Source of the DNA: an uncultured Candidatus Saccharibacteria bacterium
GTDB lineage: Bacteria; Patescibacteriota; Dojkabacteria; J137
NCBI GenBank assembly: GCA_964414295.1
Contig: CAYPVU010000031.1
Span: 17,885 to 81,884 of the forward strand
Direction of reading: 5' to 3'
DNA length: 64,000 bases
Shown here: piece by piece, positions 1 to 19,761 of the stretch
Numbering within the stretch: position 1 is the stretch's first letter
Layout: each line of letters begins with the position of its first letter
Translations under genes and position numbers: made by a program
The notes under the pieces: model-generated
What the model was told of the DNA's origin: nothing
Seen by the model: the letters and a program-made list of their open reading frames with translations, nothing else
The model's database searches: none

Positions 1-131
1 AAGGAAATCGGATATTTCAGACTATCAGAACTTCAAAGCGTAAAAGGTGCTTTAGGTTTACCAATCGAAAGAGATATGTATTTCAAGCCTAAAACTCTTA
101 GAGAACTAATGGACTGAATACAAAAACCTTA

Positions 132-154
132 GAGGGTTGCAAGGTTAAACCCTC
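132..154 (+). repeat. Hairpin (gagggtt..aaccctc) inside a ~45-bp element that is repeated at 1022-1068; terminator-like
   Basis: Inverted repeat gagggtt/aaccctc with 9-nt loop, followed by aatttt. About 80% identical copy at 1034-1056. Confidence 0.5.
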
Positions 155-182
155 GCAATTTTAAATTATTACAAAAAACAAA

Positions 183-563
183 ATGATAACTACTTTACCC
201 CTTAGATGGATTGAAAAAATAAACCCTTACTACTATGAAAATTTAGAGGAAGGTGAAGAAATAATGTGGAATACATTATGGAATTTTAACGATTGCGAAT
301 GGTCAGAGGAAAACGCAAAGAAAGTCAGAAATTGCGGAATGATACCAGTTGATGTTGATGGATTGATTTTCTGTGCATTGTCGGGTTGTGGAATGGATTT
401 AACAGCAACAGTTATTTACACACAATACAAGCTAACAGGAACAATTGAATTTGATTATGCAAAATATATCAAAAATGAGCCTCAAGATTATGTTGAATAT
501 GTAATCGGGAAAAAGAAAAGAACCGAGTTACTTACTTATATAAATAATTATTTCTACCTATAA
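183..563 (+). CDS. hypothetical small protein (126 aa)
   Basis: ORF in a tight cassette with the next ORF (1-nt gap). No recognisable motifs. Confidence 0.35.
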   Translation: MITTLPLRWIEKINPYYYENLEEGEEIMWNTLWNFNDCEWSEENAKKVRNCGMIPVDVDGLIFCALSGCGMDLTATVIYTQYKLTGTIEFDYAKYIKNEPQDYVEYVIGKKKRTELLTYINNYFYL

Positions 564-564
564 A

Positions 565-747
565 ATGAAAAACTACTTAATTCTAAATCGCTTGTATAAA
601 TTCATCAGGGAAATAAACGAAAAAACATTTATCGGACTGATTGAAGGTGTAAGAGATGAAAAAGAAGCACTCAACAGAGCAAAAGCAAAATTCAAACTTG
701 GAAAGGCTGAACAGCTTATCGCAGAGGAGTGCTATATACAAGTATAA
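565..747 (+). CDS. hypothetical small protein (60 aa)
   Basis: Short ORF immediately following 183..563, followed by a GC-rich hairpin. Confidence 0.25.
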   Translation: MKNYLILNRLYKFIREINEKTFIGLIEGVRDEKEALNRAKAKFKLGKAEQLIAEECYIQV

Positions 748-753
748 CAGGTT

Positions 754-782
754 AAGGGCGGAGGTCAAAAGCTTCCGCCCTT
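754..782 (+). terminator. GC-rich hairpin, putative intrinsic terminator
   Basis: aagggcgga...tccgccctt stem directly downstream of the stop at 747. Confidence 0.5.
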
Positions 783-818
783 ATAAAACTATTAATTATA
801 AATTTATTAAATAACAAA

Positions 819-1019
819 ATGGACTATATAAAATACCCAATAGCAAAAACATTGATTGAATGTATTGAACACTTAGAAAAAGGCGGTGAACTATGGCAGG
901 AGTTAAGTACAACTCCCGAAGATGGCGAACTTGCTCAAATTGAAAATTATGATGAATTAATGGATTTAGTTGATTATGAGGAAGATGTTGAAGACTGGCA
1001 AATTCATCTAATAGATTAA
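819..1019 (+). CDS. hypothetical small acidic protein (66 aa)
   Basis: ORF with a highly acidic C-terminus, followed by the second copy of the hairpin repeat. Confidence 0.3.
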   Translation: MDYIKYPIAKTLIECIEHLEKGGELWQELSTTPEDGELAQIENYDELMDLVDYEEDVEDWQIHLID

Positions 1020-1033
1020 TTTTGCAAACCTTT

Positions 1034-1056
1034 GAGGGTTAGAAGGTAAAACCCTC
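1034..1056 (+). repeat. Second copy of the hairpin element (gagggtt..aaccctc)
   Basis: Same stem sequence as 132-154, with similar flanks (aaacctt..., ...aaatttg). Confidence 0.5.
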
Positions 1057-1191
1057 AAAATTTGAGCAGTTGAAACTTACTTTCTTTATCTCTAGCCGAA
1101 ATAAGAAAGTAAGCAAAGAAAGTTGGCTTTTGCTTTTACATCGATAGAAGAATAGTATATTATTTGATAATAATATTTTGCATATAATAGA

Positions 1192-1404
1192 TTGATGGTC
1201 ACTCTTGCAGAGAAAATCAGAACTAGACGTATTGAATTATCCCTGACACAGGAACAATTGGCTATAAAAGCTACAATTCCATACACTACATTATCGAAGA
1301 TTGAAAATGGATTTGTATTGAACCCAACAGTCAAAACACTTAAAAAAATTGCAAAAGCGTTAGAAGTTAATATAGAGGATTTGGTAAAACATGTACAAAT
1401 ATAA
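1192..1404 (+). CDS. HTH XRE-family (Cro/C1-type) transcriptional regulator, controller (C)-protein-like
   Basis: The 70 aa sequence has an XRE-type HTH (LSLTQEQLAIKATIPYTTLSKIENG). Its stop overlaps the downstream methyltransferase start. TATAAT at 1183-1188 is 7 nt upstream of the ATG at 1195 (the track start is TTG at 1192). Confidence 0.75.
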   Translation: MMVTLAEKIRTRRIELSLTQEQLAIKATIPYTTLSKIENGFVLNPTVKTLKKIAKALEVNIEDLVKHVQI

Positions 1405-3229
1405 ACCAGTTATAGCAGAACCACATACACCACCATACAAAATACATAAGTATTTTGCACGAAGACCATGGAATGTTTTCGAACAGTTGGTATGCGAGTT
1501 TGCTAAGGAAAATGAGATAGTATTAGATCCATTTTGCGGTGGTGGAGTAACTATATACGAAGGTATTAAAAATAATAGAAAAGTAATAGGCTTTGATTTA
1601 AATCCTTTATCAATATTCATAGTGGAAAACATGATAAAGGGGTATGATGATATTGCCAAAATCAAAGATATTTATAACTCATTAAATAAATATTTAATGA
1701 GTTTATACGAAAACCTAAAAGAATTTCAAATAGGAGAAAAAGATTTATTTGGAGAAAGAAATTCTCTTGAGTTATGGAATGAATTAACCTTTATCGTATC
1801 TTGCCCCGTTTGTGGTAAATCAACTCAGTTACTTAATAGTCAAAAAGTTAAAAATGGCTTTTACAAGTGTCAAAATGATAATTGCCCTTCTCATAATTCA
1901 AATGTAAATTATTTTCAAGCTAACAAAGCTAAAAGAATTGGAAGGAAATATCTACTAACTGTATACAAAGAATCAAGTAAAAAGAAGGTTGTTCCGTTTG
2001 ATATACATCGAGAAAAAGCATTCCAAAAACATGTTCAATGGTTAAAAAAACAAGTAAGCGATGCAGGTATAACAATACCACAGGAAATTATTCCGATGAA
2101 TTGGGATCGTCAATTCGAAGACACGTTAAGTAAAAAAGGAATACTATATTTCAAAGATTTCTTCACTGAGCGGAATTTATATATAAATCTTTTATTAAAA
2201 GAGAGAATTGATTCGGAACTAAGTGAAACAGAAAGAGATATTTTTAGGTTAATATTTAGTAGTTCGTTAAAAGATACAAATATTATGTCTTTCACAGTTG
2301 ACTCTTGGCAAGGAGGTAACCCAACTTCATGGTCAAAGCATGCTTATTGGATTCCGAATCAATTTTGTGAGACATCAATTATAGAAGCATTTAAGAATGC
2401 TTTTCAAAGGATGGTTGCATCAATAGAGTTTAACAATAGTCATAAAGTAAATGGAAGAAAGGTAAATACATTTGATGAGTTAAAAGGCGAATCAAATGTA
2501 CTCCTTTACAACACTTCAATTTCAAATGAAATCCCCGATTGTGTAATTGATGCAATTATTACTGATCCTCCCTACGGAAGCAATGTACAGTATTTAGAAC
2601 TTTCACATTTTTGGCATATTTGGAACTACGATTTATACAAAAACTCTAACCCTGAGTTTTCTAAAGAAGCCATATTCAATAGAAAGAAAAATTTTGATGG
2701 CTATAAGGACATTAAACAGTACGAAACAAACTTAGAATCAGTATTTAAAGAATGTTATAGAGTCCTGAAAAATGAACGATTCATGACGCTAACATTTAAC
2801 AATAAGGATATTGGAGCATGGCTTGCAATATTAATTGCTATTTTTAAATCTGGTTTTGAATTAGCAGAGAATGGTATCTACTTCCAAGATGGAGTTAAAA
2901 ACTATCGGCAAACATCACATACAAAGTCTAAAGGTTCTCCGTTTGGAGACTTCATATATGTCTTTGTTAAAAATACAAAACAACTCAAAACTAAGGAAAT
3001 TACGCAAAGTGAATTTGTTGATAGATTCCACAAACTTTTTGAGGAGTATGAAAATATAGAGATTGAAGGTACTGAGGAATTAAATCAAAATCTTATAAGG
3101 TTATTTAATAATCTCGTTCCATTAGTTTCTCAACTTGTTAAAACATTTGATAAACACAAAGAAGATCACAGTTTATATGAAATATTAAATAAAAAATATA
3201 TAGACAAACTCTATGATAAAAAGAATTAG
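1391..3229 (+). CDS. DNA amino-methyltransferase (N6-A/N4-C) with Zn-ribbon, COG1743/DUF1156-like N-terminus
   Basis: Motif I is LDPFCGGGVT. A Zn-ribbon is present (CPVCGK...YKCQNDNCPSH). Motif IV is ITDPPYGSNVQY. N-terminal IHKYFARRPW resembles the DUF1156 signature. Confidence 0.8.
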   Translation: MYKYKPVIAEPHTPPYKIHKYFARRPWNVFEQLVCEFAKENEIVLDPFCGGGVTIYEGIKNNRKVIGFDLNPLSIFIVENMIKGYDDIAKIKDIYNSLNKYLMSLYENLKEFQIGEKDLFGERNSLELWNELTFIVSCPVCGKSTQLLNSQKVKNGFYKCQNDNCPSHNSNVNYFQANKAKRIGRKYLLTVYKESSKKKVVPFDIHREKAFQKHVQWLKKQVSDAGITIPQEIIPMNWDRQFEDTLSKKGILYFKDFFTERNLYINLLLKERIDSELSETERDIFRLIFSSSLKDTNIMSFTVDSWQGGNPTSWSKHAYWIPNQFCETSIIEAFKNAFQRMVASIEFNNSHKVNGRKVNTFDELKGESNVLLYNTSISNEIPDCVIDAIITDPPYGSNVQYLELSHFWHIWNYDLYKNSNPEFSKEAIFNRKKNFDGYKDIKQYETNLESVFKECYRVLKNERFMTLTFNNKDIGAWLAILIAIFKSGFELAENGIYFQDGVKNYRQTSHTKSKGSPFGDFIYVFVKNTKQLKTKEITQSEFVDRFHKLFEEYENIEIEGTEELNQNLIRLFNNLVPLVSQLVKTFDKHKEDHSLYEILNKKYIDKLYDKKN

Positions 3230-4541
3230 CAACACAATTAACATACTGGATATTGAAAAATATAATTCTCTAGTAAATGACTATTACAATGTAATCGATT
3301 CTTTATCAAAAAGATTCATAGTTACTGAAAACTATGAACTTGGGAAATTGGTGAATTTTAAAAGTAACTTAAAAGTTCCAAAGCACAATTGGTTCAATTA
3401 TAAACAAGGATATGCAAGCAGACTCGTTAAACAGATAATTGAATGGGAGAAAAAAAATCTAGTTGAAAATTCTGTCATTCTGGATCCGTTTTGTGGAGTT
3501 GGAACTACAAATTTAGAATCGCAAATTTTAGGTTACAGTTCTGTTGGTTATGATATCAATCCAATTGCCTTGTTAATTGCAAAAACGAAGACAACTTTCT
3601 ATACAAAACAAGAATTAGGAGATATCTTAGAAAAGATCAATAAATTTAAAATTGAAATAAATGATATTAAAAGACCTGAGATCCCTGAAGCCAAGGTCTT
3701 AATCAGCTCTTTTAGTCATGAGATTCTAGAAAACCTATTTAGAATCTTAAAATGGACTGAGCAAATTGAAGAAATAAAGACAAGAGACTTTTTTAAATTG
3801 GTTTTAATTTCAACAGTAGATCCATCGTCTTGTAGAGTGAAAGATGGAAATGGAATAAAGCTCTCTAAAACAAAAAAAGTAGTTGAAAATACTTTTGAGT
3901 TTTATTTCAATACTGCTATGCAATTCTATAAGGATATTGAAGAAATAAACTTAGATGTTCCTGTTTCAATAAACGAAGGATCATACTATAAGCATGAAGA
4001 TAATAATGATTTATATGATTTAATTATATATTCCCCTCCATACGCTAACTGCTTCGACTACTTTGAAGTGTATAAACTAGAAATGTGGGTTGCAGGATTT
4101 ATAAGTAAGTATAGTGACTTTGAGGCATACAGAAATTTAGCTATGAGGTCTCATGTCAATGCTAAATTTTCTCATGATTTTACTAATAATTATGCTGAGA
4201 TTAAGCTTATTTCTGATCTCATTCGAACTACTAATGTTTGGAATAAAAATATTCCTGATATGATAATGGGATATTTTGATGATATGTCTACAACACTAGA
4301 ACTTAATTATAAACAATTGAAAAAGGGTAAAAGATGTTACATTGTAGTTGCGAATTCTGGCTATCGTGGAATACTAGTGCCTACAGATTTATTACTTGCT
4401 AAGATTGCATCAAATTATGGATTTAAAATTGTTAATATTTTCCATACTAGAGATATTCGTTCTTCCTCGCAACAAATGAATATCTTAAAGAACGGGTACA
4501 ATAAATTGATGCGGGAGAGTATAATTGTTTTAGAAAAATAA
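3213..4541 (+). CDS. Second DNA amino-methyltransferase (N6-A or N4-C)
   Basis: Motif I is ILDPFCGVGTT and motif IV is IIYSPPYANCFDY, with about 180 aa between them (TRD). It overlaps the upstream methyltransferase by 17 nt. Confidence 0.75.
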   Translation: MIKRISNTINILDIEKYNSLVNDYYNVIDSLSKRFIVTENYELGKLVNFKSNLKVPKHNWFNYKQGYASRLVKQIIEWEKKNLVENSVILDPFCGVGTTNLESQILGYSSVGYDINPIALLIAKTKTTFYTKQELGDILEKINKFKIEINDIKRPEIPEAKVLISSFSHEILENLFRILKWTEQIEEIKTRDFFKLVLISTVDPSSCRVKDGNGIKLSKTKKVVENTFEFYFNTAMQFYKDIEEINLDVPVSINEGSYYKHEDNNDLYDLIIYSPPYANCFDYFEVYKLEMWVAGFISKYSDFEAYRNLAMRSHVNAKFSHDFTNNYAEIKLISDLIRTTNVWNKNIPDMIMGYFDDMSTTLELNYKQLKKGKRCYIVVANSGYRGILVPTDLLLAKIASNYGFKIVNIFHTRDIRSSSQQMNILKNGYNKLMRESIIVLEK

Positions 4542-7378
4542 TGAAATATCTAGAAATTTTAAAAAGAAGATTTAATTCGTGGAAAGAAGTTGAATCTATA
4601 ATCGAAGCATTACCTACAACATATGAAAAGGGGGAAGCCTTCGAGCAATTCGTATTTGCGTATTTATCATTAAATAAATCGCAATATCAAATAAAAGAGT
4701 TATATAGGTCTAAAGATATTCCTCTTACATTTTTAGAAAAATACCGTATAGAAAAAAAAGATAGTGGTGTTGACGGGTTTATCGTTTTTGAAGATGGCAA
4801 GGTTGCTGGATATCAAGTAAAATTCAGAGTAGATAGAAAAGTCCCATCATATGACGAATTAGCTAAGTTCTGGGTTGAATCTCAATATACAGACTATAAT
4901 TATATCGTTGCTAATTGTTATTATCTTACTGAACTAGCCCTCAAGAATCCAAAGCATTTAGCTATTTTAGTGGATACTTTCGATTCACTAACTGATGACT
5001 TTTTTGCTGAATTTCATTCACTAGCGAATTCTCAGGTTGTAAAAGAAAGAAACATTCTAAGACCTTACCCTTTCCAAATTAGGATGATAAATGACATTTT
5101 AGAAGGCTTCAAAAAGAATGATAGAGGTAAATTAATCGCAGCCTGTGGAACTGGTAAAACATTGACATCACTTTGGGTTGCAGAAAAGATTAAGGCAAGT
5201 AGCGTTCTTTTCATTGCTCCCAGCTTGGCTTTAATAAAACAGACACTTGAGAAATGGATGCAGAATTCCATAGTTCCTATTGATTATATCTGTGTTTGTA
5301 GCGATAAAACAGTAGTAAACGAGGATGAAGGAGATATTTTGGCAAGTGAAATTGGTGTGCCAGTAACAACAGATAAGAATGAATTAATAAAGTTCTTAAG
5401 TTCACCTAAGGCCCCCGAAAAATTAAAAGTTGTATTTTCCACATATCAGTCACTTGATGTTGTAAGTAATGCAAGTCTAGAACTAAAGAGTTATTCTTAT
5501 GATCTAGCGATATTTGACGAGGCACATAGAACAGCAGGTTCAAAAGATTCAAGTTTATTCTCTTTGGGATTAAACAATGATTTCATAAATATTCATAAAA
5601 GATTATTTATGACTGCTACCGAAAGACTTATCAAACCTTGGATTAAGAAAAAAGCTGAAGAAAACGAACGTATATTATTTTCTATGGATGATGAGAACCT
5701 CTATGGTCCAGTATTTCATAGATTTTCTTTTGGCGAAGCGATTAAAGAAAGTGTAATTTCAGACTATCGAGTAGTTGTCGCCTCTACAGATGAAAAGTCC
5801 CTTTTGGAAATGCTAAATAAAAACAATATTCTCGAAGTTATTAATAAAAATAACAGTTTAACAAACGCTCAAAATCTTTTTAAACAATTACTGTTGTTAA
5901 AATCTTTTCAGGAATTACCAATTAAAAAGACAATAACTTTCCATTCAAATGTTTTAAAGGCAAAAGAGTTTATCAATGGTGTAAATTCAAATGAACTTAC
6001 TTTTGCTGATTTAGTGAAAAGTCTCGGTAATTTCAACAATAGTTTTTTCTTGGATCATGTAAATGGAAGCATGTCTTCAGGGAAACGAAAAGAAATAATG
6101 CATAATTTTGAAATTTCTGAGTATGGTATTGTTTCTAATGCACGTTGTTTAACTGAAGGTGTTGATGTACCACTCATCGATAGTATATATTTTGTTAATC
6201 CAAAGACCTCAATTATTGACATAGTGCAAGCATGCGGAAGAGCATTAAGAAAAAACAATAACGATTCGAATAAAACTGCTTATTTCATCATACCTGTCAT
6301 TGTTAGTGAAAATAATAATGCAGGAGTTAATAGTGAAGAATTTGAGATGGTTTTTAATGTAATTCAGGCGTTAAGGGACCAAGATAGTAGAATGGCAGAA
6401 TGGATAGATACCTTAAACGATCATCTTGTAAAAGGAAAGGTGTCAAAATTTTCAAGTGGTAAAACTTCACCAATTTCAATAATTCTTCCAAAATCTATCA
6501 ATATAGATGACTTTTCTCGAAATTTGTTAATCCGAATCGCAGATGTAAACAAAAACCCAATTACTTTTTTAAAGACAAAGAGTTACGGTAAAAATGAAAG
6601 AAAAAGTCAATTTAAAAGAGTATTTAAAACAATAGGTGATATTTCTTACGATTCCTTTCAAAAGAATCTTGTTGATCCAACATTAGCAAGATTTAAAAAT
6701 GTTGATGAAATTGTTGAAACAGCTAAATTAGTAATAAACAATAATAATTTATCCCATACCGAACGACTTGGCTTATTGATTAGAGAAAATAAATATGCCT
6801 CACTGACTCCGTTGGGTAAGGCTTATTTTAGAGGGCAAATAAAGTTTATAGATCTGTTTAAGAGACAAATGCTTTATTATTTTAGTAAAGAAGAATTGGA
6901 TGGAAAGGAGATGATAATTTTTCCATACAGAACGACACTAAAAGTCCTCTTAGAAAAAGACTTTATAAGTTTTACCGACTTCGTATTTGGGATTTACTCG
7001 CTTAACAATAGTGAAAGTGATTTTGTCTATCAGTCAATAAATAGAATTAATACACTTAGAAGTAGATTCCCTAATATTGAACAATCTAATATTTCAAATC
7101 GAGAGAAACTTATTGTAGAGCTAAATAATCTATTTGAAACGAATTTTTCTATAACAGATTTATGGGAAAAGAAGACTACTATCAATAATCAGTTTATTTA
7201 CTTTAGAAATCACCTTAGTTTATTTGGAGATATGTTAGAAATTGATAATTCTAACAGAGTAATACGATTGCAAAAGGAAGGATATAATAATCTAAGGAAA
7301 ATAATAAACGATAGTAACATGATAGAAAGTTATACTAATATAAGTATTCTCCGTGAACAATACACAACCATAAATTGA
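4541..7378 (+). CDS. Restriction-type Mrr-like (PD-(D/E)xK) nuclease fused to SF2 DEAH helicase, with a 330-aa uncharacterised C-terminal domain
   Basis: N-terminus has GEAFEQFV and DSGVDGFIVFEDGKVAGYQVKF (Mrr_cat-like). Helicase motifs are AACGTGKT (I), IFDEAHR (II) and QACGRALR (VI). Its start overlaps the stop of the second methyltransferase. Confidence 0.8.
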   Translation: MKYLEILKRRFNSWKEVESIIEALPTTYEKGEAFEQFVFAYLSLNKSQYQIKELYRSKDIPLTFLEKYRIEKKDSGVDGFIVFEDGKVAGYQVKFRVDRKVPSYDELAKFWVESQYTDYNYIVANCYYLTELALKNPKHLAILVDTFDSLTDDFFAEFHSLANSQVVKERNILRPYPFQIRMINDILEGFKKNDRGKLIAACGTGKTLTSLWVAEKIKASSVLFIAPSLALIKQTLEKWMQNSIVPIDYICVCSDKTVVNEDEGDILASEIGVPVTTDKNELIKFLSSPKAPEKLKVVFSTYQSLDVVSNASLELKSYSYDLAIFDEAHRTAGSKDSSLFSLGLNNDFINIHKRLFMTATERLIKPWIKKKAEENERILFSMDDENLYGPVFHRFSFGEAIKESVISDYRVVVASTDEKSLLEMLNKNNILEVINKNNSLTNAQNLFKQLLLLKSFQELPIKKTITFHSNVLKAKEFINGVNSNELTFADLVKSLGNFNNSFFLDHVNGSMSSGKRKEIMHNFEISEYGIVSNARCLTEGVDVPLIDSIYFVNPKTSIIDIVQACGRALRKNNNDSNKTAYFIIPVIVSENNNAGVNSEEFEMVFNVIQALRDQDSRMAEWIDTLNDHLVKGKVSKFSSGKTSPISIILPKSINIDDFSRNLLIRIADVNKNPITFLKTKSYGKNERKSQFKRVFKTIGDISYDSFQKNLVDPTLARFKNVDEIVETAKLVINNNNLSHTERLGLLIRENKYASLTPLGKAYFRGQIKFIDLFKRQMLYYFSKEELDGKEMIIFPYRTTLKVLLEKDFISFTDFVFGIYSLNNSESDFVYQSINRINTLRSRFPNIEQSNISNREKLIVELNNLFETNFSITDLWEKKTTINNQFIYFRNHLSLFGDMLEIDNSNRVIRLQKEGYNNLRKIINDSNMIESYTNISILREQYTTIN

Positions 7379-7411
7379 TTTTTTTAGCGGAATTAATAAC
7401 AATTTGCTTTC

Positions 7412-7440
7412 TTGACGGTTTACGCTATATGCGGTAAAAT
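7412..7440 (+). promoter_or_regulatory. Sigma70-like promoter of lexA (TTGACG-17-TAAAAT) with an embedded imperfect palindrome
   Basis: TTGACG 7412-7417 and TAAAAT 7435-7440. The lexA ATG at 7447 makes a leaderless transcript. TTTACGC-TATAT-GCGGTAAA overlaps the spacer and -10. Confidence 0.5.
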
Positions 7441-7446
7441 TAACGC

Positions 7447-8091
7447 ATGTATAAAAGCGACTTAACACCAAAACAAAGAAATGTTCTCCTTGCAATTGAG
7501 CATTTGTTCAGGATTAATTCTGTTTCACCAACTCTTGAGGAAATTCGCCAGTATCTTAATTATAGTAATACCAGTTCAGTACAAAGGCACATTGAGCCAT
7601 TAATTAAAAAAGGGTATTTAAGAAATCAAGAAAATAAGTCTAGAAGCTTTGAAGTTATCAGCAGTAATATTGATTTAATTAACATTCCACTTGTTGGTAA
7701 TATTGCCTGTGGAATTCCTATCCATGCTGAAGAAAATATTGAAGCTTATATTCCATACCCTAAACAGGATACAAAGTATTCAGTTTCGGAACTATTTTTT
7801 CTCAGAGCTATTGGTGACAGTATGAACGATTATTGTATTAAAAACAAACCAATTCACGATGGGGATTTCGTTTTAATACATCAACAAAGTAATGCAGACT
7901 TAGGACAACCAGTTGTAGCTCTAGTTGGTGACGAAGCTACAATTAAGATTTTCAGTAAAGATACAAATCTTGGAGCTTATGTTTTAAAGCCAAAGTCTAA
8001 TAATCCTAAACATAAACCAATTTTAATATTTGATAATCTTTCAATACAAGGTGTTGCAGTAGATGTAATTAAACCTAAATTATTAAATTAA
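7447..8091 (+). CDS. lexA: LexA repressor (S24 peptidase)
   Basis: N-terminal winged helix (PTLEEIRQYLNYSNTSSVQRHIEPLIKKGYL), an Ala-Gly cleavage site (NIACGIP), the catalytic Ser in GDSM and a downstream Lys. Confidence 0.9.
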   Translation: MYKSDLTPKQRNVLLAIEHLFRINSVSPTLEEIRQYLNYSNTSSVQRHIEPLIKKGYLRNQENKSRSFEVISSNIDLINIPLVGNIACGIPIHAEENIEAYIPYPKQDTKYSVSELFFLRAIGDSMNDYCIKNKPIHDGDFVLIHQQSNADLGQPVVALVGDEATIKIFSKDTNLGAYVLKPKSNNPKHKPILIFDNLSIQGVAVDVIKPKLLN

Positions 8092-8095
8092 TAAT

Positions 8096-8341
8096 ATGAA
8101 GAAAACTAATTATCATGTAATGAAGCATCCCGAAGGTGGGTGGCAAGGCAAAAAGGAAGGGAGCCAAAAGGCAACATTCAAGACCGAGACTAAAAAACAG
8201 GCTGAATTGAAGGCTAAAGCGATAGTTTCCAATCAGGGTGGTGGCGAAGTTAAATTACATGGAGTAAAAGGAAATATTTTGGATTCCGATACAGTTAAAC
8301 CCGCAAAAGATCCAAATCCTCCAAAGGATAAAGTTCATTAA
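8096..8341 (+). CDS. DUF2188-family small protein
   Basis: NYHVMKHPEGGWQGKKEGSQKA...HGVKGNI matches the DUF2188 pattern. It lies 4 nt after lexA. Confidence 0.6.
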   Translation: MKKTNYHVMKHPEGGWQGKKEGSQKATFKTETKKQAELKAKAIVSNQGGGEVKLHGVKGNILDSDTVKPAKDPNPPKDKVH

Positions 8342-8358
8342 TTTTTATTAGACTAAAT

Positions 8359-8712
8359 ATGATAGATTTTTTAGAAAACATTTCATTGATTCATTGGCTT
8401 ATTGGAATAATTATTGTATTAATCCCGATAGCTATTTACTTTATGAAATACATAATTCTACAAATTAAATTTGCTAGAAACTTGAGAAGGAAAATCTATT
8501 TTATAAAATTGAATGATAGTAAACCACTCACAACAGAAAGGACACTTATATCAAATACTCACCTATTCAATGTCGAAAAAGAGATATATTCGATTTCTAA
8601 TGATCCCAAAATATTACAATTAATGAATAAGCACAGTTTATTTGTTGTCGGATATGATAATGGTTATGAAAGAGATGAAGATTTACATAAACTTCTAACT
8701 AAGATTTATTAA
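8359..8712 (+). CDS. Small membrane protein (one N-terminal TM helix), candidate SOS-regulated
   Basis: Hydrophobic segment WLIGIIIVLIPIAIYF and a 17-nt gap after the DUF2188 gene. Confidence 0.4.
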   Translation: MIDFLENISLIHWLIGIIIVLIPIAIYFMKYIILQIKFARNLRRKIYFIKLNDSKPLTTERTLISNTHLFNVEKEIYSISNDPKILQLMNKHSLFVVGYDNGYERDEDLHKLLTKIY

Positions 8713-8758
8713 ATTTTACTGAACTGCTAGAATAGGTTAACTACTTGAAAGTAAAAAT

Positions 8759-9181
8759 ATGGCAGTAAACATTGCAGGAGTTATTAAAAATATTAGACAG
8801 ATAGGCATTTATACGCCTATTATTGAGGCTATTGTAAACTCGATTGAGTCAATAATTCAAAGTAAGCGTGATGATGGAAGAATAACTATAAAAATAGTTA
8901 GAGATACCCAATCTAGATTTGGTGGAGAAGATGACAGTATTCCTTATATTAGATCATTTGAAATCACAGATAATGGCGTAGGCTTTACAGATGAAAATTT
9001 GAAATCATTTGATACATTGTATACTGAGTATAAGCTAACAACAGGTGGTAAAGGATTTGGAAGGTTTACTTTTTTAAAATTCTTTTCTGATGTCAAAATT
9101 GAAAGTATTTATAAAGTAGATAATGCTTACTTAAAAAGATGTTTTAAGTTTGGGACTAAAGAAAATATAGTTGAGAACTAA
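8759..9181 (+). CDS. GHKL (MORC/HATPase_c_3-like) ATPase domain, N-terminal fragment ending at an in-frame TAA
   Basis: N-box EAIVNSIES, D-x-G-x-G box TDNGVGF and a G-rich box TGGKGFGRF. It is in the same reading frame as 9197..10753. Confidence 0.6.
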   Translation: MAVNIAGVIKNIRQIGIYTPIIEAIVNSIESIIQSKRDDGRITIKIVRDTQSRFGGEDDSIPYIRSFEITDNGVGFTDENLKSFDTLYTEYKLTTGGKGFGRFTFLKFFSDVKIESIYKVDNAYLKRCFKFGTKENIVEN

Positions 9182-9196
9182 ACAGTTGTTGAAACT

Positions 9197-10753
9197 TTGG
9201 CAGATGATACAAAAACAACTCTTTATTTAAGTAATTTATTTGATGAACATCTTGAAAAATTTGATAAAAAAATTGAGACTGTTGCAAAAAGATTAGTAGA
9301 TAGTTTATTGATTTATTTTATTTCCCCTGATTTTAAATGCCCAGAAATCATACTTATCGAAGATAATAGTAATGATTCAATTATTCTTAATGATTTTGTT
9401 AAAAGTGAAGAGTCGATTAAAAGAGTCAAAGATGGCAGTTTTGAAATTGATAGGTCAGGAAAAACATATTCATTTGATGTAAAAGTTTTCAAAATTTATT
9501 CTGCACATAATCAAAGTAGTAACATAATACTTTGCGGTCACAATCGAGAAGTTACTTCTTCTCCTTTACATAACTATGTTCCAGAATTTAAAGATGAGTT
9601 CTTCGAAAATGTAAAAGGAGATTCTGAAGATGATATAAAAAAGAATTTTATTATAAGAACTTATGTTATTGGAAAATATCTAGATGAGAATGTCTCGCTT
9701 GAAAGGTCTCGATTTGAAATTCCAAGGAAGAAAAATGACGATGCCTTATTGAACTCAATCTCTCAAGAAGAAATTGAACTACTTGCGGTGGAGATAACTA
9801 AATCCCAATTTAGTGAGGATGTTCTTTCTCGCCAGTTGAAGAAAAAAGAAAGAGTTGAAAAGTATGTTAATACAGAAGCTCCATGGAATAAAGTCTATTT
9901 GGATAAAATTGATTTTAACTCAATACCTTACGATGCTTCTGATGTAGAAATCGAAACTATTCTTCATAAGGAGAGAATCGCTCACGAAGTAAAGGTAAAA
10001 CAGGATATTTCAAACATCTTAAAAAACAATGATGATTTTGTTAAGAGTGTAGATGAAGTTGTTAGTCAACTTAATGATGTAAGCAAAACGGATCTTGCTC
10101 ATTATGTTGTACTTAGAAAAAATGTTTTAGATTTGTTTAAAAAATCCTTAGAGATACAGCCGAATGATACATATGACTTAGAAAAAGCAGTACACCAAAT
10201 AATATTCCCATTAAAATCTAATAGTACCAATACGGAGTATAAAGACCATAACCTATGGTTAATTGATGAGAGATTGAGTTTCCATGAATATGTCTCTTCA
10301 GATGAACCATTGAAAGAAACTAACGACAGACCTGATATCTTGATTTTTGACAAGAAAGTATTGGTAAGGAATGATAATGAACTTTCAAACCCCCTTTATA
10401 TTTTTGAGTTTAAAAGACCACAGCGAGAAGAGTATTCAGAGGGTGATGATCCTATAAAACAAATTAATCGATATGTTGAACAGATAAGAGCGGGTAATTT
10501 TAAAACTAAAAGTGGACGAACTGTAATTGCAAATGCTAATACTCCTGCATATGGTTTTATAATATGCGATTTAACGCCCAAAGTGAGAGCATTTTGCAGA
10601 GATGCTCAATTAACCCAAAGTTCTGATGAACAAGCGTATTATGGCTATCACTCTTCTTACAAAATATACTTTGAAGTCATAAGCTTTGATAAACTGGTCA
10701 AGGATTCAGAATTAAGGAATAGAATTTTCTTTAAAAAGTTGGGATTAGAGTAA
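9197..10753 (+). CDS. PD-(D/E)xK nuclease-containing protein; probable continuation of the GHKL ATPase gene
   Basis: RPDILIFD...YIFEFKRP is a PD-(D/E)xK motif. The track start is TTG with no ATG or SD. It is in frame with 8759..9181, separated only by TAA at 9179-9181. Confidence 0.6.
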   Translation: MADDTKTTLYLSNLFDEHLEKFDKKIETVAKRLVDSLLIYFISPDFKCPEIILIEDNSNDSIILNDFVKSEESIKRVKDGSFEIDRSGKTYSFDVKVFKIYSAHNQSSNIILCGHNREVTSSPLHNYVPEFKDEFFENVKGDSEDDIKKNFIIRTYVIGKYLDENVSLERSRFEIPRKKNDDALLNSISQEEIELLAVEITKSQFSEDVLSRQLKKKERVEKYVNTEAPWNKVYLDKIDFNSIPYDASDVEIETILHKERIAHEVKVKQDISNILKNNDDFVKSVDEVVSQLNDVSKTDLAHYVVLRKNVLDLFKKSLEIQPNDTYDLEKAVHQIIFPLKSNSTNTEYKDHNLWLIDERLSFHEYVSSDEPLKETNDRPDILIFDKKVLVRNDNELSNPLYIFEFKRPQREEYSEGDDPIKQINRYVEQIRAGNFKTKSGRTVIANANTPAYGFIICDLTPKVRAFCRDAQLTQSSDEQAYYGYHSSYKIYFEVISFDKLVKDSELRNRIFFKKLGLE

Positions 10754-11086
10754 CTATCTTTTAATAATTTTGTTCAATACTATCCGTAAAAAATAAAATG
10801 GTAGCCAAAATAAGATTCCAATACACCCAAAACTTCCAAACCCACTATTCTTGTAGATTCTCTTTCCTTTTCCTCTTTTATACATCATAATAATTACAAG
10901 TTTAAATTAACTTCGGAGTAATAAGCAAGGAATTTCCAACGATTTTGTAGCTCGGAAACAAACTGCAATACTTTGGAAAAAAGTTCGTAACGCGTCCTGT
11001 CGCTCCGATATAATTACCAATTCCCGGAAACACTAATTATTCTTGGTGCTATAATCTTCACGTGCAGACTAATACCAGGAGGGTAT

Positions 11087-11386: not shown

Positions 11387-11785
11387 TTAGGAATTTAATT
11401 TACTCATTATTTCTTTTGCTACTTCTTTGTCTAGCTGTCCTTTTGTTCGTGGGTTAAAACTCTCAGCTTCTTCCATACTTCTAAAAGGATATAGTTTTGC
11501 ATGTAAGTGATTAACTTCAAATCCCTCAAAGATTAAAACAGTTCTTAAGGTATTAAGTTTTGAATCTAAAAGTAGAGCAGTTTCCTTTACAAAATCCCAA
11601 TATTTATTCATAAATTCTGAATCCTGCTTAAAAACATAAGAATCTCTTTGCTTTTTAGGAATTACTAAAGTTTGAGCATACGATGAAGGAAATGCATCTA
11701 AAAATGCCATAAACTCTTCATCTTCCCTAATAATATATGCCGGTATTTCTTTATCTGCGATTTTTTCAAAGATTGTTTTTTCCAT
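11387..11785 (-). CDS. HIT (histidine triad) family nucleotide hydrolase
   Basis: Histidine triad-like HLHAKLYP and Hint-like length (132 aa). Confidence 0.75.
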   Translation of the reverse strand: MEKTIFEKIADKEIPAYIIREDEEFMAFLDAFPSSYAQTLVIPKKQRDSYVFKQDSEFMNKYWDFVKETALLLDSKLNTLRTVLIFEGFEVNHLHAKLYPFRSMEEAESFNPRTKGQLDKEVAKEIMSKLNS

Positions 11786-12988: not shown

Positions 12989-13087
12989 ATAAGTGTTTTA
13001 ACCAAAGGAGTTTACTACGAAATGTTGAGTTTAGGAAAGTGTAGAGGGTGAAGAGCTGTTGGCCATTTACTTCACCCCCTGATTCGT

Positions 13088-13555
13088 TTAGCGGACTTCG
13101 ACAACCATATGGTCGTCGATTTCAAGAACTTGAATAACTTCACCCAGTTCAGGGTACTCCTGTACCGGGTCTTTCGTCTTCACGGAATAGGGCAGTAGGG
13201 TTAGAATCACCTTGTGTTGCCCTATTGTGATGCTTGGAAACACTGGCGACACAGAATTCAAACTGACTTCCGGTCTATCAGGCTTCCTTGCACCAACTAC
13301 ATGCATTAAGCGCCCCGTCACGATCTCGGGGAGCGGAAGTTCAGGTGCGGCACGCAGTTTATACTTTGTACCCACTTCGCGACTTCCCTCAGTCACGCTT
13401 TCCGGCTCTTGCAGCAAGAACGCAAAAACTCTTGCTTCATCCTGCTTAGCAGCCGCCTTCCATTCCTCAGCCAGAAGAATGGTTGTATTGTCCGGTGTGT
13501 TCAAAATCACCAGACGCGAGAAGCGAACTTCCATGCACACCTCCGTTGCCAACAA
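13088..13555 (-). CDS. GC-rich hypothetical protein (155 aa), likely foreign origin
   Basis: About 52% GC within an about 30% GC genome. The translation is coherent and non-repetitive. The true start is possibly the second Met (MEVRFSRL). Confidence 0.45.
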   Translation of the reverse strand: MLATEVCMEVRFSRLVILNTPDNTTILLAEEWKAAAKQDEARVFAFLLQEPESVTEGSREVGTKYKLRAAPELPLPEIVTGRLMHVVGARKPDRPEVSLNSVSPVFPSITIGQHKVILTLLPYSVKTKDPVQEYPELGEVIQVLEIDDHMVVEVR

Positions 13556-13653: not shown

Positions 13654-14190
13654 ATGGCAATTCAAACAGCAACTTTTGCAGCAGGATGTTTTTGGTGTGT
13701 AGAAGCTATTTTTGAAAGAGTAAAAGGCGTTAGTAAAGTAGTTTCTGGCTACACTGGAGGATTTATGGACAATCCTACATACGAACAAGTTAGTACAGGT
13801 AAGACGGGCCATGCAGAAGCAACTCAAATTGAATTTGACGACAGCATTGTAAGTTTTAGAGATTTGGTAAATATTTTCTTTTTAACTCACGATCCTACAA
13901 CTTTAAATAAACAAGGCGCTGATATAGGGTCACAATATAGATCTGCAGTTTTTTTTAATAGTGAAGAGCAAAAAAGCATAGCAGAGGAAGTAAAGAAAGA
14001 AATAGAAGAAAAGAAAGTGTATTCAGACCCTATAGTTACTGAAATATCGGAATTAAAAAAGTTTTATTCTGCAGAAAAGTATCATCAAAACTTTTATGAT
14101 AATAATAGAGACTATCCATACTGTAAGATAGTTATAGATCCAAAAGTTTCTAAATTTAGAAAAGAGTTTATAGATAAGATTAATGAATAA
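13654..14190 (+). CDS. msrA: Peptide methionine sulfoxide reductase MsrA
   Basis: Active-site GCFWC motif and length consistent with MsrA. Confidence 0.9.
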   Translation: MAIQTATFAAGCFWCVEAIFERVKGVSKVVSGYTGGFMDNPTYEQVSTGKTGHAEATQIEFDDSIVSFRDLVNIFFLTHDPTTLNKQGADIGSQYRSAVFFNSEEQKSIAEEVKKEIEEKKVYSDPIVTEISELKKFYSAEKYHQNFYDNNRDYPYCKIVIDPKVSKFRKEFIDKINE

Positions 14191-18411: not shown

Positions 18412-19761
18412 TTACCTTGTAACTTGAAAGCTTTTTACTTGTTCTAAAATAGATTTTGCATTAGCATCATTTTCAAAATGATCTCTTACAGGTTGTAATA
18501 ACTCATTTAAGTATTTAATTACAGCCAACTTTAAGTCTAGCGGGAATAGTTCCTTATTTTTAAATGCTGTTTCTAATTCTTCAAAGTTTGAATATTCAAC
18601 ATCTCCACCAAATCTATCTTCTCTTTCTACTAAAAACTTTCCATTTACTAGTAAAGGAGTTTTCCTTTTTAAGTAATTTGCTTGGAATATGATTTGTTTA
18701 CAATAATCTAAGATAGGATTATCTTCTATTATTCCTTCAGGACAATAAGCTTTCATAATCTTAGATTTAACTTCATCTGCAGAATCAGTCATAAAGATAG
18801 CTGTATCTGGTTTTGATTTACTCATTTTCATAGAAATTAATCTTTCAGGAGTACTTTCTAATACTTCTAGAACTCCATCAACCAAAAAAGATACATCCAT
18901 ATCAAAGAATTTAGCCTTTTCTCCTTTATGCAATACTACATTTCTTTTATCATCACCGTTTTTAGCAACAAATTCTATTTCTACATGATCATCTGCTAAA
19001 TTTTTCAAAACTATATTAGCTTTTGATGCAGAGTAGAGAACAGATTCACTACCATTCTGTAATTGAATCACAACTCTTTTTTTGTCTAGGGGTTTTTGTA
19101 ATCCTTGCAACATTCCATGACTTACAATTACTGGCTTCCAGAATCCAATATCTTCGCCTATTTCTCTTGCGACGATATTTACTTTCCTTTGGTCTAAACC
19201 TAGTTGAGTCACTTGACATTTCATTACTCCAAAAATATCTGCAATTTGCATACAAGGGTAGAGTATTTGTGCAGCAGATAATTCATCGTTTTCACTTCTT
19301 CCCATTATTTCTGTTGTCCTTAAAGCTCTTTTTAGAGTTACAGACTTAGCAACTTTCATAACTAACTCCCAGTACCATCGCTGACTTACAAAATCTGAAG
19401 TCCACAAAAACTCTGTTTTATCTAAATTCATTCCGCTGGCTTTCCATATTTCAATAAAGTACTGACCTACCACCTTAATCTTTTCTAAATCACCACCCAT
19501 TTTATTGTTTAAGTATCCAAACCAATCAGCAACCCACATTTTAAAAGTAAACCCAGCATCAATCATTTTATTTGTATTGATGGCTCTAATTATTCCTTGC
19601 GCAATATGCATTTGGCCTGATGGTTCAAATCCATCGTAAGTAAATAAAGGTTCGTTGGACTCTAATATTTTTTTAAGCTCGTCTGCACCAATTATTTCAC
19701 CTCCATTTTCTGCTATAGATTTAATCAATGCTATTCGTTCTTCAATTGTTAAGTTGTTCAT
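18412..19761 (-). CDS. tyrS: Tyrosyl-tRNA synthetase, archaeal/eukaryotic type
   Basis: GFEPSGQMHIAQG (HIGH variant) and KMSKS. The C-terminus closely parallels archaeal TyrRS (KAYCPEGIIEDNPIL..., FGGDVEYSNFEELE..FKNKELFPLDLK). Confidence 0.85.
   Translation of the reverse strand: MNNLTIEERIALIKSIAENGGEIIGADELKKILESNEPLFTYDGFEPSGQMHIAQGIIRAINTNKMIDAGFTFKMWVADWFGYLNNKMGGDLEKIKVVGQYFIEIWKASGMNLDKTEFLWTSDFVSQRWYWELVMKVAKSVTLKRALRTTEIMGRSENDELSAAQILYPCMQIADIFGVMKCQVTQLGLDQRKVNIVAREIGEDIGFWKPVIVSHGMLQGLQKPLDKKRVVIQLQNGSESVLYSASKANIVLKNLADDHVEIEFVAKNGDDKRNVVLHKGEKAKFFDMDVSFLVDGVLEVLESTPERLISMKMSKSKPDTAIFMTDSADEVKSKIMKAYCPEGIIEDNPILDYCKQIIFQANYLKRKTPLLVNGKFLVEREDRFGGDVEYSNFEELETAFKNKELFPLDLKLAVIKYLNELLQPVRDHFENDANAKSILEQVKSFQVTR

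Follow-up and report, generated by a model that had tools for sequence, protein, structure and literature searches.

A GHKL-ATPase Shedu (type I-D) defence gene probably disrupted by a recent nonsense mutation in a tRNA-Pro island of a Dojkabacteria chromosome

Two open reading frames (ORFs) that follow each other in one frame, 8759..9181 and 9197..10753, raise a simple question: are they two genes, or one gene cut by a stop codon? They lie in a 64,000-nucleotide stretch of contig CAYPVU010000031.1, part of a metagenome-assembled genome (MAG) of a Candidate Phyla Radiation (CPR) bacterium; this whole stretch is referred to as the window. An earlier note on this DNA had read the pair as a single GHKL-ATPase/PD-(D/E)xK nuclease gene, split by a TAA at 9179-9181 and 15 sense bases. 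Translation confirmed these coordinates and revealed exactly one internal stop within the 665-codon frame 8759..10753. The five codons between the TAA and the TTG at which the second ORF is called (ACA GTT GTT GAA ACT) read TVVET. We find that the frame is a disrupted member of the GHKL-ATPase Shedu family, formerly paraMORC3, and that it is probably a recent nonsense pseudogene of this known defence gene. Its parts are listed in Table 1.

The conceptual fusion of both pieces was used as the query in a homologue search, which returned 1395 proteins. The best 120 of these measure between 659 and 705 amino acids, the exceptions being the window's own 518-residue piece (P0001) and a 483-residue protein from a 2.9-kb contig. 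Full-length matches within this set cover 99-100% of the fusion and pass through the junction; the closest among the matches listed are 67%, 64% and 63% identical to it. The family alignment runs through the junction without a gap, the frame being colinear with homologues of 660-670 amino acids. A separate survey, in which each GTDB species was represented by one genome, returned 80 loci from more than 15 phyla, including Proteobacteria, Bacteroidota, Cyanobacteria, Acidobacteria, several CPR groups and an Altiarchaeota MAG. At 77 of the 80 the gene is one uninterrupted ORF. The remaining three (L028, L043 and L044) have one in-frame stop each (TAG, TGA and TAA, respectively), at three different positions, and no frameshift. 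A two-gene arrangement conserved among homologues was found at none of the 80 loci. Hence, the homologues are not consistently two genes, as the earlier note had considered they might be, but single polypeptides across the junction.

The ORF that starts at the TTG is a by-product of ORF calling. The absence of a Shine-Dalgarno sequence in front of this codon, to which the earlier note had drawn attention, turned out to be uninformative, given that a Shine-Dalgarno-like 4-mer precedes only 5 of the 52 long ORFs in the window. The genome, with 30.3% G+C in the window, is essentially devoid of such motifs.

The ATPase motifs of the gene are intact but are parted by the TAA, with motifs I to III upstream and motif IV downstream, in frame. 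All of the ATPase and nuclease motifs that had been named from the sequence are present and fall on columns that are invariant in the family. In the 5' fragment Pfam recognizes HATPase_c (27.9 bits, residues 21-101), and a match of this type (HATPase_c or HATPase_c_3) was obtained in 18 of 18 family members scanned. Past the TAA, the frame first specifies the ATPase motif IV strand (about 9212-9238) and then a middle domain of transducer/S5-like type, which a long helical linker separates from a PD-(D/E)xK nuclease. Residues E475, H479, P525-D526 (in PDILIFD) and E550-F-K552 (in EFKRP) of the latter occupy invariant columns of the family alignment, and the second piece as a whole gives a weak PD-(D/E)xK match with Pfam.

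To place the break within the fold, we used an AlphaFold model of P0002, the homologue 67% identical to the fusion (predicted local distance difference test score, pLDDT, 85.3). This model has four parts: it begins with a Bergerat ATP-binding fold (about residues 1-190) and continues with a middle domain of mixed alpha/beta structure, an extended helical linker and, at the C-terminus, an alpha/beta domain. Foldseek searches with the N-terminal half retrieved Topo VI-B, GyrB/ParE 43K, the N-terminal domains of MutL and PMS2, Hsp90/TRAP1 and SMCHD1, with E values from 1e-11 to 1e-8, and the model aligns over 330-530 columns, spanning GHKL and transducer, with GyrB 43K, the MutL N-terminal domain, Topo VI-B, Hsp90 and SMCHD1. 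As judged from the model of this homologue, the N-terminal half is a GHKL-plus-transducer module. MutL, GyrB/ParE, Topo VI-B and Hsp90 share this Bergerat ATP-binding plus transducer fold with the N-terminal ~330 residues of the gene family, but have other C-terminal domains and other biology. No PDB chain has detectable sequence similarity to the family; a PDB sequence search with a 75-sequence profile gave no match at E <= 1.

The stop corresponds to L140 of P0002, which in the model lies within beta-strand 137-145 of the GHKL domain; a motif IV-like T-x-[IV]-x-L strand (151-159) is found downstream. Compared with the model, the first piece breaks off one and a half beta-strands before the end of the ATPase fold, so that the motif IV strand and all that follows are missing from it. 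Its initial description as a truncated GHKL domain was right about the missing C-terminal part, but not about the ATP-lid region, which had been thought to be missing as well and is present between the DxGxG and G-rich boxes.

[quoted passage not shown] Foldseek matches of this domain against the PDB are all weak; the best are mostly PD-(D/E)xK nucleases (MspJI, FokI, McrC, Can2 and Shedu 8ti8). When the C-terminal domains of 25 family members were scanned with Pfam, HSDR_N was matched in 10, PDDEXK_9 in 8 and SduA_C in 2, the best E value being 3e-5.

Some homologues carry the name sensor histidine kinase in databases. This assignment was rejected, as Pfam detects no HisKA in 18 members and the fold is MutL/GyrB-like with a transducer. 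Names such as this one and "ATP-binding protein" are given because neither PADLOC nor NCBIfam has a model for the family; NCBIfam gives no match for either piece.

The family has already been described as an anti-phage system, and one of its members has been validated by experiment: VcSduA, a 673-residue protein (A1552VC_00276) from the WASA lineage of Vibrio cholerae, which has a GHKL ATPase at its N-terminus and is classified as Shedu type I-D (Nat Microbiol 2025, PMC12137116). Proteins of the VcSduA type were previously annotated as paraMORC3 (PMC12137116). VcSduA protects at all multiplicities of infection tested, in a direct and not abortive manner, and either of the changes E27A and K557A abolishes its defence against T1-like phages (PMC12137116). 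BLASTP aligns residues 1-399 of VcSduA with residues 1-410 of the fusion, colinearly across the stop (E 6e-38), with E27 opposite E23; from the numbering, K557 would correspond to K552 of the window gene. The two have the same order of parts (GHKL motifs I-IV first, then a middle domain resembling a clamp, and the PD-(D/E)xK nuclease at the C-terminus) and similar lengths, and both are stand-alone genes in variable islands. They differ in that identity is only 28% over the residues compared, in their hosts (a proteobacterium versus a CPR bacterium of the Dojkabacteria) and in the premature stop of the window copy, which is presumably non-functional. The window gene belongs to a different subfamily from the validated protein.

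Membership is also apparent from the 543 VcSduA homologues given, as partial sequences, in Supplementary Table 5 of the bioRxiv version of the VcSduA paper (PMC12137116). Among them is GQR94_RS17025 of Cellulophaga sp. L1A9, that is, P0056 (WP_158977344.1), whose full-length identity to the fusion is 47%. The table further includes a protein on NZ_CP087133.1, the record that holds locus L063 of our survey, as well as proteins from Draconibacterium, Synechocystis and Desulfuromonas that share the N-terminal signature.

The older description of paraMORC3 agrees with these data. It specifies GHKL and S5 domains followed by a C-terminal restriction-endonuclease-fold domain with E-D-ExK motifs, and a wide but patchy spread, suggesting lateral transfer, of genes that often stand alone or beside restriction-modification genes (Iyer, Abhiman and Aravind 2008, PMC2292703). 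MORC sensu stricto, for its part, is defined by a GhXhhpXXRhl motif in the S5 domain (PMC2292703). The window's family matches paraMORC3 in module order, E-D-ExK motifs, patchy spread and stand-alone or restriction-modification settings; the two are equated on the strength of what PMC12137116 states and of this architecture, no accession from PMC2292703 having been matched directly. In addition, 10.1101/2023.08.10.552793 lists Shedu homologues in which a GHKL fold is linked to a middle domain of the Hsp90/MORC/topoisomerase-like kind.

Canonical Shedu SduA from Bacillus cereus (PDB 8ti8; DUF4263/SduA_C) resembles the window's family in being a single-protein defence system with a C-terminal PD-(D/E)xK effector. 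The structural similarity is weak (Foldseek E 0.45-1.4) and so is the similarity by hidden Markov model (HMM), the SduA_C matches in the two members mentioned above reaching E 3e-5 at best, whereas the N-terminal region is wholly unlike that of the window's family. VcSduA models confidently as a dimer, with a poorly supported tetramer model (PMC12137116); inactive B. cereus Shedu is described as a homotetramer in 10.1101/2023.08.10.552793.

No partner gene is conserved across the 80 homologous loci, and a multi-gene system was rejected on this ground. The adjacent genes differ from locus to locus (restriction-modification genes of types I, III, IIG and ISP, AAA_13, recombinases, Pif1 and DUF2779), those that recur being restriction-modification systems and other defence or mobile genes. 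Such neighbourhoods are consistent with a stand-alone defence gene. In L082 (Logan SRR20608312) and L083 (Logan SRR13020431), which hold the two nearest intact homologues, the homologue lies downstream of a type ISP restriction enzyme of 1613-1620 amino acids and a Pif1-family helicase, with ParB-methyltransferase and terminase-like genes nearby; in L082 a DUF2779 gene is also found upstream of it. This setting looks like a phage-derived or mobile defence cassette, unlike the island of the window.

Is the stop codon real? The Logan contig SRR8581213_133452 is 100% identical to positions 8450..11027 and has the same TAA, with the same split into 140 and 518 amino acids. We thus infer that the stop is a real mutation and not an error common to both assemblies. 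A sequencing, consensus or assembly artefact, in which the true codon would be TTA or GAA and the gene intact, appears unlikely. Such an error would account for a gene without any other defect; the source is a MAG, and the Logan graph branches near the gene (contigs end at 8450 and 11027), so that the sample contains mixed strains. However, the identical TAA is found in two assemblies made with different software, and a substitution error yielding exactly one stop would have to recur in several reads (Logan assembles its contigs from k-mers that occur at least twice). Furthermore, no other gene of the 64 kb has a comparable defect. No other nonsense-split gene was found in the window, and its three other same-frame adjacent ORF pairs (DnaN/FemAB, HlyD/ABC ATPase and DUF998/ArgS) are complete, unrelated genes. 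Of the three explanations that had been offered at the outset, a pseudogene is thus favoured over a sequencing error by the TAA in the Logan contig, while readthrough is unsupported.

At the column of the stop, the two closest relatives have Leu and most other homologues Glu; at the DNA level, the closest homologue (L082) reads TTA there and L083 reads CTT. With TTA or Glu at this codon, one substitution (TTA>TAA or GAA>TAA) suffices to produce the stop. A close intact allele (more than 67% identical) is absent from the searched databases, and both fragments are singletons in protein-collection clusters. Decay of the rest of the gene was assessed on 142 columns, defined on 75 intact homologues as at least 90% conserved. 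The window copy differs at 5 of them, and all five changes are conservative (E>D, K>R, F>I, G>A and F>Y). Among intact homologues the number of such differences has a median of 3 and reaches 16 at most; the three closest have 6-7. The remainder of the gene is therefore as conserved as in intact homologues, which argues for a recent lesion.

Loss of function is to be expected for the native copy, because the break divides the ATPase and ATP hydrolysis is essential in VcSduA. In the scheme we propose, intact members would be stand-alone proteins of ~665 amino acids in which a GHKL ATPase and a transducer-like middle are joined through a helical linker to a PD-(D/E)xK nuclease, with an ATP-driven GHKL dimer or clamp controlling the nuclease, as hypothesized for VcSduA (PMC12137116). 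The gene would have entered a Candidatus Dojkabacteria chromosome by horizontal transfer, at the outer end of a strain-specific island that integrated at tRNA-Pro, and a single nonsense substitution at codon 141 would have inactivated it. Translation would end at residue 140, partway through a beta-strand of the ATPase and short of motif IV, so that the product would be an incomplete, probably unstable ATPase fragment with no nuclease. A protein initiated at the TTG, if made, would be devoid of motifs I-III.

We envisaged that the gene might still be functional, but consider this very unlikely. Either low-level readthrough of the TAA would provide an attenuated dose of a nuclease that is dangerous, or reinitiation at TTG 9197 would yield a nuclease-bearing fragment of 518 amino acids, acting with or without the 140-residue one. 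The gap between stop and TTG is only 15 nucleotides, the remaining frame is fully conserved and the three other disrupted members also have a single in-frame stop, not a frameshift, all of which would suit continued function. Yet the break falls in a beta-strand of the ATPase core and leaves motifs I-III and motif IV on separate fragments, whereas VcSduA requires ATPase activity, its E27A variant being dead (PMC12137116). No homologue conserves a split, whether here or at another site, the four known stops being at four sites and representing all three stop codons. In addition, TAA is the main terminator and no suppressor tRNA is encoded in the window; promoter-like sites do not exceed chance (16 versus 15.0 expected), and no terminators were found.

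Counting the window, disrupted copies occur at 4 of 81 loci (the others being L028, L043 and L044), with one in-frame stop each, at four sites, no frameshift and no other decay. That all four disruptions are single stops is, with four cases, only a lead. Recurrent single nonsense codons may serve to switch off the Shedu nuclease, through repeated selection against an autoimmune or costly enzyme soon after its horizontal acquisition or, more speculatively, by way of leaky stops that maintain a low dose; we regard this idea as a long shot. Finally, a reassignment of TAA as a sense codon can be dismissed almost outright: although some CPR lineages are known to recode a stop (UGA in Gracilibacteria and Absconditabacteria), TAA ends 43 of the 57 window ORFs of at least 150 amino acids, including dnaA, argS and murE, and is the natural terminator of the gene itself (10751-10753), and TAG and TGA also serve as stops (9 and 5 ORFs, respectively), in line with the earlier opinion that a variant code is unlikely.

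Several points weigh against the conclusion that the locus is a recent nonsense pseudogene of a GHKL-ATPase Shedu gene. On the side of the family, the window's own C-terminal domain is below the Pfam SduA_C threshold, and no PADLOC Shedu model (PADLOC v2, 2023) matches either piece or any of 18 intact homologues; the label "Shedu" comes from sequence homology of the VcSduA type, not from a canonical Shedu HMM. On the side of the lesion, the NCBI MAG and the Logan contig may derive from one run, and the near-perfect conservation of the frame fits a still-expressed gene or an error equally well. Lastly, the ancestral codon is deduced from relatives of which the next is only 67% identical.

Table 1. 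Parts of the split gene, its disrupted homologues and the features of the surrounding island. Positions refer to the window, except those of L028, L043 and L044, which refer to the respective loci.
Feature	Positions	Strand, setting or source	Remarks
5' fragment of disrupted Shedu type I-D (GHKL-nuclease) gene	8759..9181	+	ATG, 140 codons and premature TAA
ATPase motif I	E23 8825-8827, N27 8837-8839	+	invariant family columns
ATPase motif II, DxGxG	8969-8983 (D71, G73, G75)	+	invariant family columns
ATPase motif III, GGKGFG (G-rich box)	9044-9061 (G96-G101)	+	invariant family columns
Premature TAA	9179..9181	+	codon 141
Remainder of frame	9182..10753	+	523 codons and natural stop TAA; includes TTG ORF
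TTG ORF, mechanical call	9197..10753	+	518 codons, part of 9182..10753
C-terminal nuclease domain	10052..10750	+	E475 10181-10183, D526 10334-10336, E550 10406-10408, K552 10412-10414
Disrupted homologue L028	7992-9995	Cyanophyceae MAG	TAG; stop column is a conserved Glu in the family
Disrupted homologue L043	7992-9998	Binatia MAG	TGA; stop column is a conserved Gly in the family
Disrupted homologue L044	7887-9998	Bryobacteraceae MAG	TAA
Strain-specific island	1..10990		left end beyond window; synteny break relative to related strains
Two DNA methyltransferases (N6_N4)	1391..3229, 3213..4541	island	612 and 442 amino acids, 17-nucleotide overlap
ResIII helicase/restriction subunit	4541..7378	island	945 amino acids
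LexA-like S24 repressor	7447..8091	island	TIGR00498 lexA, 135 bits
DUF2188 protein	8096..8341	island	PADLOC candidate PDC-S16
117-residue ORF	8359..8712	island	no family
tRNA-Pro(GGG) 3'-end remnant, ~19 nucleotides	10991..11009	-	att-like partial copy; right edge of island

Positions 1..10990 belong to a strain-specific island that has integrated at tRNA-Pro, and the split gene lies outermost in it. Contigs of related strains, which carry an identical HIT protein (11387..11785), are syntenic with the window and 96-99.4% identical to it at the nucleotide level from 21859 down to exactly 10991, and have other genes beyond this point. A complete tRNA-Pro(GGG) is present at the break point in L084 (10777-10852) and in L086 (4053-4128), followed by NUDIX, fasciclin and other genes. 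The window retains only the remnant described in Table 1; ARAGORN found no tRNA in the 64 kb, nor were any Rfam families detected there. Therefore, the other end of the island, presumably with the intact tRNA and an integrase, should lie to the left of the window. At the island edge there is a branch in the Logan graph for the same sample, where L001 and L089 overlap by 30 nucleotides (10998-11027). Base composition does not set the island apart.

The other genes of the island include a type III-like restriction-modification module (1391-7378). The best PADLOC matches of its 945-residue ResIII protein are type IIG and type I restriction-methyltransferase fusions, and Pfam detects no dedicated nuclease domain in this protein. 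The genes between 7447 and 8712 may form a regulatory or separate defence module; they are not conserved beside homologues of the split gene elsewhere.

The window is chromosomal, as it carries dnaA, dnaN, ftsK, argS, murE and tyrS. Named relatives of its DnaA, 67-73% identical, are all from Candidatus Dojkabacteria. The tyrosyl-tRNA synthetase (18412-19761) matches the archaeal-type model PRK08560. In two related-strain assemblies msrA (PMSR) is called as two pieces of 57 and 108 amino acids (L084, 7594-8129; L085, 3240-3775), the gene being intact in the window (178 amino acids, 13654-14190). A MazG-like gene (L084, 9543-9915) is split into 67 and 66 amino acids in the ENA assembly only. Gene fragmentation thus occurs elsewhere in the lineage or in its assemblies. 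The segment 13001-14000, especially 13078-13136, has the highest G+C content of the first 20 kb (41.7% versus about 30%). It is about 59 bases longer in the window than in L086 and L087 and gives no Rfam match; a hypothetical ORF on its reverse strand (13088..13555) varies in length among strains, from 148 to 169 amino acids.

For annotation, these results call for a single pseudogene entry, of the GHKL-ATPase Shedu (type I-D) family, in place of the two ORFs, and mean that separate labels of the kind "ATP-binding protein" and "hypothetical protein" should be avoided. The locus adds one more case of fast gain and loss of defence genes and implies no new mechanism. With it, an experimentally validated defence family and a defence island inserted at tRNA-Pro are both placed in a CPR bacterium of the Dojkabacteria, which has a small genome.

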